Shown here piece after piece: positions 11,218 to 17,045 of a stretch of 38,348 bases of DNA. The notes under the pieces are model-generated. The model saw only the letters and a program-made list of their open reading frames with translations. It made no database searches and was not told the origin of the DNA. Made by a program: the position numbers and the translations under genes. The first letter of the stretch is position 1, and every line of letters begins with the position of its first letter. Origin of the DNA: a virus (lineage: Duplodnaviria > Heunggongvirae > Uroviricota > Caudoviricetes); IMG/VR virus record IMGVR_UViG_2609459797_000003; one strand, written 5' to 3'.

Positions 11218-12015
11218 ATGAATAATCTGATGGTCATTGATGGTATTGAAGTTCGTCGTGATGCTTATGGGCGTTACAGCCTGAACGATCTGCACAGGGC
11301 TGCCGGTTCTCAGGATAAGCATAAGCCTGCATTCTGGCTCCGCAATGAGCAAACCGAACGTTTAATAAGCGAGTTGCAGATTTGCAACTCGGTCAATATA
11401 GAGCCAGTTAACGTTAGTCGTGGCGGAAATAACCAGGGGACGTATGTCTGCAAAGAACTGGTGTATGCCTATGCAATGTGGATCAGCCCGTCATTCCATC
11501 TGAAGGTGATCCGTACTTTCGATATGGTAACCAGCGCACCGGAAAAATTATCCGGGCAGGCTGCTGACAAGATGCAGGCTGGCGTGATTCTGCTGGACTT
11601 TATGCGCCGGGAGTTAAACCTGTCTAACTCATCTGTGCTTGGGGCCTGTCAGAAACTCCAGGAGGCTGTTGGCTTACCGAATCTGGCACCACGCTATGCC
11701 ATTGATGCTCCTGCTGACGCGCCTGATGGCTCAAGTCGCCCTACGCTGTCGCTGAGTGCACTGCTGAAACAGTATGGTATCCGCCTGACAGCTAATCAGG
11801 CATATCACCAGATGGCGAAGCTGGGGATCGTTGAACAACGCGAACGATACAGCCGTACCGCGATTAACAACATCAAAAAATTCTGGTCGCTGACGGCGAA
11901 AGGCTGCATGTTCGGCAAGAACATTACCAGTCCTGCAAATCCGCGCGAGACGCAGCCGCATTTCTTCGAATCCCGATTCCCTGAGCTGTTAAAGCTGCTC
12001 GATACCGTTCATTGA
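11218..12015 (+). CDS. KilA-N domain protein (antirepressor-like)
   Basis: N-terminal 'MVIDGIEVRRDAYGRYSLNDLHRAAG...KPAFWLRNEQTERL' is a KilA-N DNA-binding domain; AAGAGGAG Shine-Dalgarno. Confidence 0.7.
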   Translation: MNNLMVIDGIEVRRDAYGRYSLNDLHRAAGSQDKHKPAFWLRNEQTERLISELQICNSVNIEPVNVSRGGNNQGTYVCKELVYAYAMWISPSFHLKVIRTFDMVTSAPEKLSGQAADKMQAGVILLDFMRRELNLSNSSVLGACQKLQEAVGLPNLAPRYAIDAPADAPDGSSRPTLSLSALLKQYGIRLTANQAYHQMAKLGIVEQRERYSRTAINNIKKFWSLTAKGCMFGKNITSPANPRETQPHFFESRFPELLKLLDTVH

Positions 12016-12016
12016 G

Positions 12017-13012
12017 GTGACCGTGAGAGCACTACTGACCCCTGAAATTGCCCCGCGTATGGGGATCGTATTGTTCAGACCAGGTTCAGAGCTGATGCCC
12101 CTGTTTATGCAGGGGCGTGTACTGCTGGAGCCTGAGCCGGAACGTTATTCATCTTTCGCCAGTGGTGCCGTTCCCGCGGCATCACAACCGCTGGCGGATG
12201 ATCCTGCTGTTCGGGCCGTGTTCCGCAATGAGGCAGTGATCCGTCGTGCTGGTGGCGTGGAATGTCTTGAAAGCTGGTTACTTCGTGAAAAAGGCTGCCA
12301 GTGGCCTCATTCCGACTGGCACAGCGAGAACATGACCACAATGCGACACGCTCCGGGCGCAATCCGTCTGTGCTGGCACTGTGATAACCAGCTGCGCGAT
12401 CAGTTCACGGAACGGCTGGAATCAATGGCAACGGATAACTGTGCCCGCTGGGTGTTGTCTGTTGTGCGTCGGGATCTCGGTTTTGATGATAGTCACGTTG
12501 TGACAATGCCGGAACTGTGCTGGTGGCTGATTCGTAATGACCTGGCGGATGCCTTACCGGAAAGTGCAGCCCGTAAGGCACTGAGATTACCAAAGCCTGT
12601 TGTGCCGTCTGTCACCCGGGAAAGTGACCTTGTGCCTTCGGTTCCTGCCACCAGCATCATCCAGGATAAAGCGAAAAAGGTGCTGGCGCTGAAAGTGGAT
12701 CCGGAGTCGCCGGAGTCTTTTATGTTACGCCCTAAACGTCGCCGCTGGGTTAACGAAAAGTACACGCGCTGGGTTAAGACGCAGCCGTGTGCATGTTGTG
12801 GAAAGCCTGCTGATGATCCCCACCACCTGATAGGTCACGGTCAGGGTGGAATGGGTACAAAAGCGCATGACCTCTTTGTGTTGCCTTTGTGCAGAAAGCA
12901 TCACGACGAGCTGCATGCGGATACTGTGGCATTTGAAGATAAATATGGCTCTCAACTGGAGCTGATATTTCGTTTTATCGATCGTGCGCTGGCAACTGGC
13001 GTGCTGGCCTGA
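12017..13012 (+). CDS. DUF968-family protein (YdfU-like) with C-terminal Cys/His motif
   Basis: 331 aa; C-terminal '[18 protein letters not shown]...[10 protein letters not shown]' looks like an HNH/zinc-binding motif. Start is GTG at 12017 in the track; first in-frame ATG is at 12059. Confidence 0.5.
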
Positions 13013-13029
13013 TTTTGTGGAGAAAGTTG

Positions 13030-13401
13030 ATGCGTGATATTCAAATGGTTCTTGAACGTTGGGGTGCATGGGTGGCAAATAATCACGAGGATGTCACTTG
13101 GTCGTCTATTGCTGCAGGATTTAAAGGACTAATCCCTTCAAAAGTAAAATCCCGCCCGCAATGTTGTGACGATGACGCGATGATCATTTGTGGGTGTATG
13201 GCTCGCCTGAAAAAGAACAACAGCGATTTGCACGATTTATTAGTGGATTACTATGTAGGAGGTATGACATTTATGGCGCTTGCCCGTAAACATGGGCGTT
13301 CTGATTGCTGGGTTGGGCGTTTATTGCAAAAAGCGGAAGGAGTAGTTGATGGTATGTTGATAATGCTAGATATTGAATTGGAAATGGAACGTAAAATTTA
13401 G
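13030..13401 (+). CDS. late-gene antiterminator Q (QuuD-type)
   Basis: '[34 protein letters not shown]...[30 protein letters not shown]' matches my recollection of DLP12 QuuD; position immediately upstream of the lysis module. Confidence 0.7.
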
Positions 13402-13630
13402 TTATGTTATGAATAAATAAATGCTAATGATTTTTGTAAGATAGCTCATTTTATGTCCATAGGTGATGTATGCATTAATATGATTAATTTGTCTCCTTAT
13501 AAAAATAAGATTATGTAAATAATAACAAAGGGTGACATTATTAAGTGTTGCTTTTTCTTAGTAAGTTGTTATCCTACTTAAGGTTGAATGATATTGTATC
13601 GAATAAAGTTGCTTATATAGAATTATTTTT

Positions 13631-14158
13631 ATGTTATGGCTTATTGAGTTAGTTAATAGGATGATTGAATCAATGCTTTCAAATGTAATTTTAAGTGGAG
13701 CTATGTCCACGTTATTGGCTGCATTTCTAATTTTTGTGTTTAAGGAGTATATAAAAAGGCCACCTAATTTTTCAGGGGTGTTTGAGATCGAGTGTAAAAC
13801 GCTAAAATCATCATATAATTCATATGTAAACCTAACTACATTCTATACATTAGTGTTGATTTGTGATAATAACACTATAGAAGGACATATTGAAAAAATA
13901 AAAGATATCGAAAATGATGGGAATGAAAGAAAATATATTGGCGTGCATCGCAATATTGGCGATGTCAATGGTGTAATTAAAAGAAATTACTTAAGACCTA
14001 ACCATGCTTCGTTGAATATAAAAATGCATGGTGATAAGAGGGATTATACTATTATGCTATATTTTAAGAAGGTGAATACGAAAAATATGAAAGGAACTTT
14101 TTTATCTACTGCTGCAGATTCTTCTGGAGATGTTAAGTGGCAGCGAAAAAATTTTTAA
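13631..14158 (+). CDS. AT-rich cassette gene 1: membrane-anchored protein of unknown function
   Basis: 175 aa; hydrophobic helix 'VILSGAMSTLLAAFLIFVF' near the N-terminus followed by 'KEYIKRPP'; Lys/Asn-rich low-GC codon usage. Start uncertain (ATG at 13631, 13661 or 13673). Confidence 0.55.
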   Translation: MLWLIELVNRMIESMLSNVILSGAMSTLLAAFLIFVFKEYIKRPPNFSGVFEIECKTLKSSYNSYVNLTTFYTLVLICDNNTIEGHIEKIKDIENDGNERKYIGVHRNIGDVNGVIKRNYLRPNHASLNIKMHGDKRDYTIMLYFKKVNTKNMKGTFLSTAADSSGDVKWQRKNF

Positions 14159-14781
14159 TTTATTTACTGTCGTTGCCATATTTAATAATGGCTTCGATTA
14201 TCATAAAGCTTAAAGTTAAAAGTATAATTGATGATTATGAGAAATGTACTACTTATATTTACTGTAACTCGAAGAAATATAATAACATTTCTCCTGTTAT
14301 GATTGATATATTAAGGTTAGCAGAGGATCATCGACAATTATTGCATAGAGGGATTGACCCCATTGCAATCATTAGAACTTTTTATCTGAGGATATTTAAA
14401 AATATACACCAAGGAGCGAGCACTATAGAACAGCAGTTTGTGAGAACTATAACTAAAAGATACGAAAAAACAATACGTAGAAAGATAAGAGAGCAGATAT
14501 TGGCTATATTGATTAGAAATGTATCAACTCCAGATGATATATGTAAGTGTTATCTTTCTTGTTGTTACTATGGCTATGGAACTTATGGGATAGATAATCT
14601 TTTAAAAAAGAAACAAAATATCAGTGATTTTGATATTGTTGCAATGATTAAATATCCATTCAGGGGAGAAGTTGTTTCAGTTACAGAGGAACGATTTAAA
14701 CATAGGTCGCTCTATCTTTCCACTTTATATAAATTAAATGCACAAAGGGATATGATTTTTTTGCGAAAATATAGTGGGTGA
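14137..14781 (+). CDS. AT-rich cassette gene 2: membrane-anchored GT51 (MtgA-like) peptidoglycan glycosyltransferase homolog
   Basis: GTG start with GGAGA Shine-Dalgarno 6 nt upstream, overlapping gene 1 by 22 nt. N-terminal hydrophobic 'FLIYLLSLPYLIMASIII'; then 'AEDHRQLLHRGID' (EDxxFxxHxG-like), 'GASTIEQQ' (GxSTxTQQ-like) and 'RRKIREQ' (RKxxE), with both candidate catalytic Glu present. Confidence 0.6.
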   Translation: MAAKKFLIYLLSLPYLIMASIIIKLKVKSIIDDYEKCTTYIYCNSKKYNNISPVMIDILRLAEDHRQLLHRGIDPIAIIRTFYLRIFKNIHQGASTIEQQFVRTITKRYEKTIRRKIREQILAILIRNVSTPDDICKCYLSCCYYGYGTYGIDNLLKKKQNISDFDIVAMIKYPFRGEVVSVTEERFKHRSLYLSTLYKLNAQRDMIFLRKYSG

Positions 14782-14978
14782 TTATGTTAAGTGTATTTTA
14801 TTATGTGTCAAAAAGTTTAGTCATCTCTGCTTAATGTATAATCGTGAATGTTTTTATTCAGATTTTATGCATGTCAAGTTGATGAGTGCCGTCGACATAA
14901 GATATGGGGATAATGAATAGTTTACAATCGTAAATAATAGAATATCCTGTTAAAAGTGGTTACTTCTCCACGCAGCTT

Positions 14979-15008
14979 AAACCCGCCGTCGAGCGGGTTT
15001 TGTCGTTT
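14979..15008 (+). terminator. rho-independent terminator between cassette and holin (tR'-like position)
   Basis: 'aaACCCGCcgtcgaGCGGGTtttgtcgtttc': 6-8 bp GC stem, 6-nt loop, U-rich tail. Confidence 0.6.
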
Positions 15009-15152
15009 CTGGGTCTGGGGATTCCTTGGTCCTAGCCTATCCCGCAGTTATCCATTAACTCGGCTTCTTTGACGTTTCCGCTTCTGATTTGCGGTACATG
15101 ATGTTTCCTCAATTTGCACCTGCTGTATCAGCGAGGTGAGAGATAACTACAA

Positions 15153-15479
15153 ATGCCTCATAACCCAAATACCTGGCTGGAGTTGGTCCAGAGCTGGTGG
15201 CGTGGAGACACACCGCTGGGCGCAGTGATTATGTCGATCGTTATGGCTGGTTTACGTATTGCCTATTTTGGCGGCGGGGGCGGCTGGAAACGAAAAACAC
15301 TCGAAATTTTGCTCTGTGGCGCTCTGACGCTGACATTTGCATCCGCTCTTGAGTATGTCGGATGGCCTAAATCACTTTCTGTTGCCATTGGTGGTGGTGT
15401 TGGGCTGATCGGTGTCGATGCTATTCGTGGGGCAGCAATGCGAGTAATCGGTAACAAATTTGGTAGCTCGAAGGAGTAA
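15153..15479 (+). CDS. holin, lambda S family (class I)
   Basis: 108 aa; hydrophobic segments and charged C-terminus align with lambda S ('AYLRGRYNGG...' versus 'AGLRIAYFGGGGG...'); two Met near the N-terminus suggest a dual-start motif. Confidence 0.8.
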   Translation: MPHNPNTWLELVQSWWRGDTPLGAVIMSIVMAGLRIAYFGGGGGWKRKTLEILLCGALTLTFASALEYVGWPKSLSVAIGGGVGLIGVDAIRGAAMRVIGNKFGSSKE

Positions 15480-15482
15480 TTT

Positions 15483-15959
15483 ATGCAGGCACTAAATTCC
15501 CAGCGTAAAGCTTTCCTTGATATGGTGGCATGGTCAGAAGGAACGGAGAACGGGCGACAACCGACACGTAACCACGGTTATGACGTTATTGTTGGTGGTG
15601 AACTGTTTACTGATTACTCCGATCACCCTCGCAAACTTGTCACGCTAAACCCCAAACTCAAATCAACAGCCGCCGGACGTTATCAGCTTCTTTCACGCTG
15701 GTGGGATGCTTACCGTAAGCAGCTTGCTCTGAAAGACTTCTCTCCGAAAAGCCAGGATGCTGTGGCATTGCAGCAGATTAAGGAGCGTGGCGCTTTACCG
15801 ATGATTGATCGCGGTGATATTCGTCAGGCAATTGACCGTTGCAGCAATATCTGGGCTTCACTGCCGGGCGCTGGTTATGGTCAGTTCGAGCATAAGGCTG
15901 ACAGCCTGATTGCAAAATTCAAAGAAGCAGGCGGAACGGTCAGAGAGATTGAGGTATGA
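15483..15959 (+). CDS. endolysin, lambda R-type lytic transglycosylase
   Basis: 158 aa nearly identical over most of its length to lambda R as I recall it ('[55 protein letters not shown]...'). Confidence 0.95.
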
Positions 15960-16417
15960 GCAGAGTAACCGCGATTATTTCCGCTCTGGTTATCTGCATC
16001 ATCGTTTGCTTGTCATGGGCTGTTAATCATTACCGCGATAACGCCATTACCTACAAAGCCCAGCGCGACAAAAATGCCAGAGAACTGAAGCTGGCGAACT
16101 CGACAATTACTGACATGCAGATGCGTCAGCGTGATGTTGCTGCGCTCGATGCAAAATACACGAAGGAGTTAGCTGATGCGAAAGCTGAAAATGATGCTCT
16201 GCGTGATGATGTTGCCGCTGGTCGTCGTCGGTTGCACATCAAAGCAGTCTGTCAGTCAGTGCGTGAAGCCACCACCGCCTCCGGCGTGGATAATGCAGCC
16301 TCCCCCCGACTGGCAGACACCGCTGAACGGGATTATTTCACCCTCAGAGAGAGGCTGATCACTATGCAAAAACAACTGGAAGGAACCCAGAAGTATATTA
16401 ATGAGCAGTGCAGATAG
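15956..16417 (+). CDS. i-spanin Rz
   Basis: 153 aa, N-terminal membrane anchor, coiled-coil periplasmic domain; ATGA overlap with R; Rz1 embedded in +1 frame. Confidence 0.9.
16176..16358 (+). CDS. o-spanin Rz1 (lipoprotein embedded in Rz)
   Basis: '[24 protein letters not shown]...[23 protein letters not shown]': lipobox VVGC and Pro-rich body, as lambda Rz1. Confidence 0.85.
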
Positions 16418-16448
16418 CGCTGCCCATATCGATGGGCAACTCATGCAA

Positions 16449-16742
16449 TTATTGTGAGCAATACACCCGCGCTTCCAGCGGAGTATAAATGCCTAAAGTA
16501 ATAAAACCGAGCAATCCATTTACGAATGTTTGCTGGGTTTCTGTTTTAACCACATTTTCTGCGCCGCCACAAATTTTGGCTGCATCAACAGTTTTCTCCT
16601 GTCCAATTCCCGAAACGAAGAAATGATGGGTGATGGTTTCCTTTGGTGTTACTGCTGTCGGTTTGTTTCCAACAGTAAACGTCTGTTGAGCACATCCTGT
16701 AATAAGCATTGCCAGAGCGGCAGAAAACAACATTTTTTTCAT
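16449..16742 (-). CDS. bor: Bor lipoprotein (serum-resistance protein)
   Basis: From internal Met 'MKKMLFSAALAMLITGCAQQTFTV...' the 97-aa product closely matches lambda Bor; lipobox ITGC. Confidence 0.9.
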   Translation of the reverse strand: MKKMLFSAALAMLITGCAQQTFTVGNKPTAVTPKETITHHFFVSGIGQEKTVDAAKICGGAENVVKTETQQTFVNGLLGFITLGIYTPLEARVYCSQ

Positions 16743-16922
16743 CTTATTATCCTGCATTGTTAAAAACGGCAGAATCCTATGTGACAACAATTAAACGATA
16801 GTTAAATGGATTGATGAAAATTAAAACTATATAGGTGTACGGTCAGACTATTGGAGGTAGTCAGGATTTGAATGTCAGTCTGTTGTCGGCATTCTGGCAA
16901 TGCAATTTGGATAAAGCGGGGA

Positions 16923-17045
16923 TTAAAAAGATAGAGGCGAGCCGGTCAGGTAGAAATGAATCAGGCTCAAAGTGAAGCGGAAAAGGTCTGTGGCACAAGC
17001 TGATGCAGCCATAATTACAGCCTGATGATTTGTGGAATGAAACAT
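16923..17045 (-). CDS. small hydrophobic ORF (40 aa) with consensus Shine-Dalgarno (tentative)
   Basis: Minus-strand 'tAAGGAGGttcaacATG' gives a perfect ribosome-binding site at 6-nt spacing; product MFHSTNHQAVIMAASACATDLFRFTLSLIHFYLTGSPLSF. Below the ORF-track length cutoff. Confidence 0.35.
   Translation of the reverse strand: MFHSTNHQAVIMAASACATDLFRFTLSLIHFYLTGSPLSF

Follow-up and report, generated by a model that had tools for sequence, protein, structure and literature searches.

The hairpin at 14979–15008 is very probably the tR′ of a compact Q-dependent late unit (14921–15008) lying wholly downstream of a two-gene cassette. It was analysed within the whole stretch of 38,348 nucleotides of a tailed virus (Caudoviricetes; IMG/VR record IMGVR_UViG_2609459797_000003), referred to here as the window. 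As such, it corresponds to the normal late-gene terminator found in prophages of the phage-21/DLP12 type, and the explanation is an ordinary one for this group of phages, namely the tR′ of a displaced but intact late unit. Its place after the cassette is explained by that of the late promoter it serves, which is located there too. The same gap holds cargo in DLP12, SfII and many E. coli prophages, so that the window is not peculiar in this respect. The features discussed below are collected in Table 1.

Table 1. Features of the Q-to-holin region, in positions of the window, with the evidence for each.
Feature	Positions	Strand	Basis
Q antiterminator, 123 aa, QuuD-like short member of the Q21 family	13030..13401	+	PF06530
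Low-GC cargo island	13393..14909	.	GC 0.25–0.33 versus 0.45–0.58 in the flanks; without homology to other Q–holin intervals
Candidate cassette promoter	13548..13575	+	TTGCTT 13548–13553, 16-nt spacer, TG 13567–13568, TATCCT 13570–13575
Cassette gene 1, 175-aa membrane protein	13631..14158	+	ORF list; without Pfam or PADLOC match
Cassette gene 2, 214 aa, N-terminal TM segment and GT51 transglycosylase domain	14137..14781	+	PF00912
PR′ -35, TTTACA (predicted)	14921..14926	+	Promoter scan; T.AC invariant across 9 loci
Candidate Q-binding element, imperfect palindrome TACAATCGTA	14923..14932	+	Association of Q helix and site, 87 loci
PR′ -10, TATCCT (predicted)	14943..14948	+	T, A and final T invariant, middle varies (9 loci)
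Second -10-like hexamer, AAAAGT, candidate sigma-dependent pause element	14952..14957	+	A2 and T6 kept in 25/26 units
Small 5′ stem-loop, GUGG...CCAC	14956..14971	+	Fold; paired-cell count
tR′ intrinsic terminator (very probable)	14979..15008	+	Scan, fold, kept in cassette-free loci
Leader, tR′ to holin	15009..15152	+	93–96% identical to SfII and several E. coli prophages with other cargo
Holin S, first late gene after tR′	15153..15479	+	PF05106, E = 5.7e-25

A consensus scan located the hairpin on the plus strand at 14979–15000, where it reads AAACCCGC-CGTCGA-GCGGGTTT and is followed by TGTCGTTTCT. The stem pairs 14979–14986 with 14993–15000 (8 pairs, 5 of them G-C) around a 6-nt loop (14987–14992), and a T-rich tail, TTTTGTCGTTT, in which the U-tract is interrupted, extends to 15008, giving the element the G+C-rich stem-loop and U-tract of an intrinsic terminator. 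The sequence quoted in the original prediction, ACCCGCcgtcgaGCGGGTtttgtcgttt, maps to 14981–15008. In the scan this hairpin ranks first among the terminator-like sites in 11500–17000 and is the sole such site on the plus strand from the Q stop (13401) to the holin start (15153). Sites of this kind are not rare under the loose criteria of the scan (8 sites versus 4.5 ± 2.2 in shuffled sequences), so that the count alone is weak evidence. A 58-nt RNA spanning 14955–15012 folds at -18.7 kcal/mol, compared with -12.9 ± 2.5 for shuffled sequences (z = -2.3). Stronger evidence comes from comparison across loci, for which BLAST searches of complete E. coli genomes and phage records were combined with 104 further loci encoding Q relatives, and it is this comparison, more than the scan count, that makes the terminator convincing. 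Of 28 distinct related units, 27 carry a hairpin with U-tract at approximately +25 to +55, counted from the predicted start. Among them at least 10 different hairpin sequences occupy this place, so that the position and structure of the terminator are kept while its sequence turns over. Scan and comparison therefore agree with the earlier claim that the only convincing terminator in the Q–holin interval lies after the cassette. An Rfam scan of 13300–15300 at E ≤ 1 matched no family; hence the short late RNA does not belong to a curated family.

The late unit spans 88 bp and comprises a -35, a palindrome, a -10, a leader of ∼25 nt and the terminator. TTTACA-16-TATCCT, with 9 of 12 consensus matches in the promoter scan, occupies 14921–14948 and suggests a sigma-70-type promoter directly upstream of the terminator. 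This is supported by an alignment of nine loci with different cargo, made with unanchored MAFFT, in which (G)TTTAC(A/G) or a CTAACG variant is followed by a variable spacer, TAnnnT, GTTAAGAGTGGTTACTTCGCCACAC, AGCTTA and the hairpin. The invariant T.AC, together with a hexamer whose T, A and final T are invariant and whose middle varies (TATGAT, TATGCT and TATTGT occur among related units), is the pattern that marks a -35 and a -10. In a set of 26 units collected by regular expression the invariance of the -10 is partly circular, as the pattern fixed T, A and T, and it is the MAFFT alignment on which the invariance rests. Transcription is predicted to start at ∼14955, which would place the terminator at about +25 to +54, upstream of the late genes, and would yield a terminated late RNA of ∼50 nt with its end at ∼15001–15008.

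The predicted late RNA has no clean -10-like pause element at +1 to +8. The best candidate is AAAAGT (consensus AAGAGT), which sits 9 bp after the -10, overlaps the predicted start and resembles the sigma-dependent pause element (SDPE) of phage 21, TAAGCT; whether it acts as such an element from this unusual position is uncertain. TTACTT at 14960–14965, the other pause candidate, is not conserved in distant relatives. The small 5′ stem-loop at +2 to +17 is paired in 85% of cells versus 23–60% for slid controls and is kept in Xenorhabdus and Providencia relatives, where one pair changes from G-C to A-U with compensation, which suggests weak covariation support. Two other hexamers were considered as the true -10 and rejected, namely TAAGAG/TAAAAG and TAGAAT at 14938–14943; neither has a -35 at a workable distance and neither is conserved in the loci of Q class B (described below) or in distant relatives.

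It is also conceivable, if unlikely, that the same location operates by another logic, with the -10 in the A-rich CGTAAATA (CGTAAA) and TAnnnT (14943–14948) as the pause element, or with an RpoE promoter. The homologous DLP12 promoter (essDp) is said to be used by RpoE, in work of Rueggeberg et al. from 2015. In the shifted register the palindrome and the -10 would be directly adjacent, like the Q-binding element (QBE) and -10 of phage 21, and the 12 bp from TAAATA (14931) to TATCCT (14943) are close to the 13 bp from -10 to SDPE in that phage. A claim of RpoE use for the DLP12 essD promoter is also cited in PMC7918800. However, the shifted register has no conserved -35 and its -10 has no final T, whereas TTTACA-16-TATCCT, with its invariant T.AC, is the better sigma-70 promoter. 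The shifted register would move the start ∼12 nt upstream and would leave the position of the unit relative to the cassette unchanged.

The Q protein of the window belongs to the same family as that of phage 21. It matches PF06530 over the full profile (positions 1–118; E = 2.5e-51, 173 bits versus a 26-bit cutoff) and, in a phmmer search, shows a distant relationship to the phage 21 Q structures 6p18 and 6jnx (E = 8e-9). Structural comparison of an AlphaFold model (pLDDT 79, pTM 0.74) with the PDB placed Q21 chains in the first 11 ranks (TMq 0.52–0.70, probability 1.00; TM 0.6–0.7 for the best), followed by region 4 of an ECF sigma factor. The model contains a helix at 81–88, a 3-residue turn and a helix at 92–112, consistent with Q having the Q21 fold with a helix-turn-helix like that of sigma region 4. 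Residue 93 thus takes the second position in the predicted recognition helix, 92–112. Q is intact in the window, unlike in the near-identical prophage of E. coli FDAARGOS_1277 (NZ_CP070103.1; 3131–3502 of locus L001), which is 99.8% identical here and whose Q carries an internal stop and a pseudogene annotation. Locus L019, a contig with the label of a Candidatus Nanosynbacter MAG, is most likely a binning contaminant; its Q shares 93% identity with the E. coli type.

The promoter of the late unit also contains a predicted Q-binding element cognate to the Q allele. The palindrome TACAATCGTA lies within a class-specific 14-mer, TTTACAATCGTAAA (14921–14934), overlaps the downstream half of the -35, and the 14-mer occurs once on the plus strand of the window, at 14921. 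Among the 87 loci in which both the Q helix and the site are visible, the helix RSDCWVGR is found with TTTACAATCGTAAA in 65, including the window, across gaps of 592–3201 nt and at least 6 cargo types; CSDT[HY]IGK is found with TTTACGATCGTAAA in 7 loci and CSDG[YHN]IGK with TTTACGTACGTAAA in 15. The helix residue in SD-C/T/G pairs with AAT/GAT/GTA at the centre of the palindrome, with 0 exceptions in the 87 loci. The sites of these Q classes are palindromes or near-palindromes (TACGTACGTA, TACGATCGTA and TACAATCGTA), and two further, more divergent Q classes have other palindromes at the same place (GCGTACGC in SfII, GCGGTCCGC in loci L006 and L007). A matched comparison is provided by two Providencia loci, L026 and L028, in which the Q genes are ∼76% identical and the promoter blocks almost identical: in the -35/-10 interval they differ solely in the palindrome centre (TA to AT), and in the recognition helix solely in residue 93 (G93 to T93). 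Linkage could explain part of this covariation, as helix and site are ∼120 bp apart in empty sites. That the association spans many cargo insertions, and that residue and palindrome centre change one-for-one, argue for a functional pairing of Q and site. It is possible that these short QuuD-type Q proteins follow a one-residue specificity code, in which C/T/G may correspond to AAT/GAT/GTA in a palindromic TAC-NNNN-GTA site over the -35.

The window lacks the direct repeats of the phage 21 QBE. A search for TGAGCA NN TGAGCA with up to 3 mismatches gave 31 matches in the window versus 37.7 expected and 0 in promoter context within the Q-to-holin interval. In loci L076–L113 (for example L076, 8256–8330), a sister Q allele, RSDCWVGRM, keeps the -35 and TTTACAATCGTAAA and has a better -10, TATGAT; the leader there is unrelated, with a strong -10-like TATAAA at ∼+13 to +18 and only a weak AT-rich hairpin, and this looks like a variant late unit.

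The displacement of the unit from Q is evident from comparison with related prophages. In BLAST searches, homology stops at ∼13392 and resumes at 14910–14948, and the right-hand block includes the hairpin. Between these limits lies an island of ∼1.5 kb and 29% GC that carries the two-gene cassette. In cargo-free relatives the late block, which reads TTTACnnnCGTAAA, 8 nt, TAnnnT and then G(T/A)TAAGAGT, begins 5–28 nt after the Q stop, with an intrinsic terminator behind it. Such empty sites were found in E. coli and Shigella (L010/L011), Trabulsiella (L016/L017), Pantoea (L018), Citrobacter (L020/L021), Xenorhabdus (L024–L031) and Providencia (L026/L028/L032). In the window the gap from the Q stop to the unit is 1519 nt, and the unit is not adjacent to Q; adjacency is typical of late units and not mechanistically required, and it is lacking in K-12 DLP12 too. 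Judged by the empty sites, the unit normally neighbours Q; in the window the 1.5-kb island has separated the two. Wherever cargo is present, it lies between the Q stop and the block, and the distance from block to terminator is kept. The cargo, in gaps of 592–3201 nt, includes porins, a KAP NTPase, DUF6650, two SfII genes, a methyltransferase-linked set and several unknown proteins, and is mostly on the opposite strand; co-directional cargo also occurs (for example L076 and L081). The Q-to-PR′ gap may be a hotspot for cargo in general, in which accessory genes stay free of control by Q. The cassette itself occurs at this site in 3 of 5426 complete E. coli genomes. Similarity to other class-A Q genes is lost at ∼13392, which is 9 nt short of the stop codon, so that the last Q residues (...ERKI) are encoded by the cargo side of the junction; the C-terminal tails of Q differ between loci with different cargo.

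These comparisons bear on the first of two arrangements that the original prediction had left side by side, in which PR′ and a qut site directly follow Q (13402–13630) and the PR′–tR′ interval encloses the cassette, which would be read constitutively in the lysogen, as part of a long terminated leader. PR′ does directly follow Q in lambda and phage 21, and 13402–13630 is AT-rich with -10-like hexamers such as TAGAAT at 13618–13623. However, no promoter-like site on the plus strand of 13402–13630 passes the scan, this segment is without homology to the post-Q region of any relative, it contains neither the class-specific 14-mer, whose single plus-strand copy lies in the late unit, nor a phage-21-type QBE, and a PR′–tR′ distance of 1.6 kb would be unlike that of every characterised or related unit (∼50 nt). 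We therefore consider this arrangement very unlikely. A PR′–qut–tR′ unit entirely upstream of 13631, which would have overturned the earlier reading, was not found; instead, the predicted PR′–QBE–tR′ unit lies entirely downstream of 14781.

The cassette has the features of a mobile module. Gene 2 matches PF00912 (E = 1.6e-23, profile positions 17–126 of 178), retains the motifs ED..H.G, GASTIEQQ and RKIRE, and gives partial NCBIfam matches to PBP1 and mono_pep_trsgly; searches of the cassette against PHROGs and NCBIfam returned this partial transglycosylase domain only, and PADLOC returned no match for either protein. Homologues of gene 1 (∼182 aa) always have a gene with a transglycosylase domain directly after them (partner ∼211 aa), and one UniRef cluster of these homologues is named 'SMODS-associating 2TM beta-strand rich effector'. 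The pair, with ∼70% DNA identity over 13680–14771, recurs as a conserved module in at least 6 unrelated contexts, among them (loci among L115–L131) an Enterobacter chromosomal island, a Citrobacter island, the chromosome CP061719, the tail-fibre/sheath gap of a P2-like prophage and a Rahnella island beside bacteriocin immunity genes. We regard this module as a candidate accessory or defence system of prophages, as yet undescribed.

The second arrangement offered by the original prediction, with PR′ downstream of the cassette and a separate promoter for the cassette, agrees with these results in both respects, with a different cassette promoter from the one it had named. TTGTAT (13594) and TAGAAT (13618), the pair put forward at 13594–13623, are not conserved in cassette homologues, whereas a motif ∼45 nt upstream is. 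This motif, TTGCTT-16-TGnTATCCT (13548–13575), is kept in six unrelated contexts, where it precedes the first gene of the cassette by ∼55–85 nt (∼55 nt in the window), and we infer that it is an extended -10 promoter of the cassette, better supported than TTGTAT/TAGAAT. The scan found no terminator-like site on the plus strand between 14781 and 14978, and the cassette, a 2TM membrane protein with its GT51 partner, may borrow tR′ as terminator and insulator, in which case a single hairpin would gate two transcription units. That the hairpin instead arrived with a moron cassette as its own terminator, unrelated to Q, is the least probable explanation: it is the first terminator after gene 2, with no other after 14781, and morons classically carry their own terminator, but it lies outside the low-GC island, is 93–96% conserved in SfII and in E. 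coli prophages with different cargo or none, and was not found beside the cassette homologues in the six other contexts.

With the hairpin as tR′ of the displaced late unit, the following mode of operation can be proposed. In the lysogen, PR′ would fire and RNA polymerase would halt at tR′, so that the holin and other late genes would be off. As the cassette lies upstream of PR′, it could not be transcribed from PR′ and would most likely depend on the extended -10 promoter of its own. With no other terminator after the cassette, its transcripts should also end at tR′, which would then double as the cassette terminator and keep cassette transcription out of the lysis genes; since Q would load only on polymerase that starts at PR′, polymerase from the cassette promoter would reach tR′ unmodified by Q. 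After induction, Q would bind its site at PR′, load on polymerase paused just past the start and enable it to read through tR′ into S-R-Rz and beyond; the genes from 15153 onward encode holin, endolysin and spanins. A gene for a Bor/Iss-type lipoprotein, a classical lambdoid moron, lies downstream of the lysis genes on the minus strand (16449–16790) and is annotated 'increased serum survival lipoprotein Iss' in an identical prophage.

The result settles which genes are under Q control here, in that the cassette lies outside the late operon and is not driven by PR′, and its expression in the lysogen would rest on its own promoter. The placing of accessory genes upstream of PR′, as opposed to downstream of tR′ in Stx phages, bears on whether prophage accessory or defence genes are expressed in uninduced cells. 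The comparison also provides a testable Q-binding site and single-residue rule for the very common antiterminators of the QuuD/DLP12 type, which are present in most E. coli genomes. The predicted Q site with its one-residue rule, the cargo gap between Q and PR′ and a mobile cassette that also occupies a P2-type hotspot may each be of separate worth. Taken jointly, a one-residue QuuD code at the -35 palindrome, the Q–PR′ gap as a general cargo hotspot and a cassette that borrows tR′ form a proposal that we put forward tentatively, at somewhat under even chances of holding as a whole.

The late unit most closely resembles that of phage 21 (6P18/6P19/6JNX), in which two Q protomers bind direct TGAGCA repeats between the -35 and -10, and Q21 loads on sigma-paused polymerase and forms a ring at the RNA exit channel that blocks terminator hairpins (PMC6606751; bioRxiv 10.1101/651190). 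In the phage 21 record, the Q stop is at 600, the -35 at 607–612, the QBE at 615–630, the -10 at 630–635 and the start at 642, followed by the SDPE (TAAGCTG) at 643–649 (+2 to +8) and the terminator end at 691 (+50); the unit is 85 bp, with its -35 at 7 nt after the Q stop and a terminated RNA of ∼50 nt. The window shares with it the Pfam family and predicted fold of Q, the order of -35, Q site, -10, start and terminator, a unit of similar size (85 versus 88 bp), a predicted terminated RNA of ∼50 nt and a Q site placed between or over the promoter hexamers. The differences lie in Q, which has 162 aa in phage 21 and 123 aa here, without the long loop between the helices of the helix-turn-helix, and in the site, which consists of direct TGAGCA repeats in phage 21 (PMC6606751) and here would be the imperfect palindrome overlapping the -35. 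As the candidate site is a palindrome and is placed further upstream (-32 to -23, compared with -27 to -12 for the phage 21 QBE), the binding geometry may differ. Moreover, phage 21 has an annotated SDPE, whereas no pause element can be clearly identified in the window, and its unit is 7 nt from Q as opposed to 1.5 kb here.

DLP12 of E. coli K-12 has a Q of the same subfamily (QuuD); the window's protein is ∼84% identical to the QuuD cluster P0177. DLP12 has quuD, nmpC as cargo, and the conserved block with the same hairpin 169 nt upstream of essD. Its lysis operon (essD/rrrD/rzpD) is reported to be under Q-type antiterminator control (PMC7918800). A literature search found no sRNA or mapped start between nmpC and essD. 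DLP12 is of class B (CSDGYIGK with TACGTACGTA), whereas the window is of class A (RSDCWVGR with TACAATCGTA), and nmpC is on the opposite strand, whereas the cassette is co-directional with late transcription and without a terminator of its own. The cassette resembles a phage moron in being an AT-rich island between conserved phage functions, with a candidate promoter of its own, and in recurring at further mobile-element hotspots, for example the P2-like tail-fibre/sheath gap; it differs in that no terminator of its own is detectable and the next one is the phage tR′.

The proposed logic is also that of the lambda PR′–qut–tR′ region (6S RNA) and of Stx phages (StxS), where a constitutive late promoter is terminated at once in the lysogen and Q is needed for read-through; the by-product is a short RNA, StxS in the case of the Stx-phage PR′ (PMC7547250). 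These systems differ in their unrelated Q families (Q-lambda and Q82 types) and their longer terminated RNAs. In Stx phages, tRNAs and stx lie downstream of tR′ and are Q-dependent, whereas in the window the accessory genes lie upstream of PR′ and would be Q-independent.
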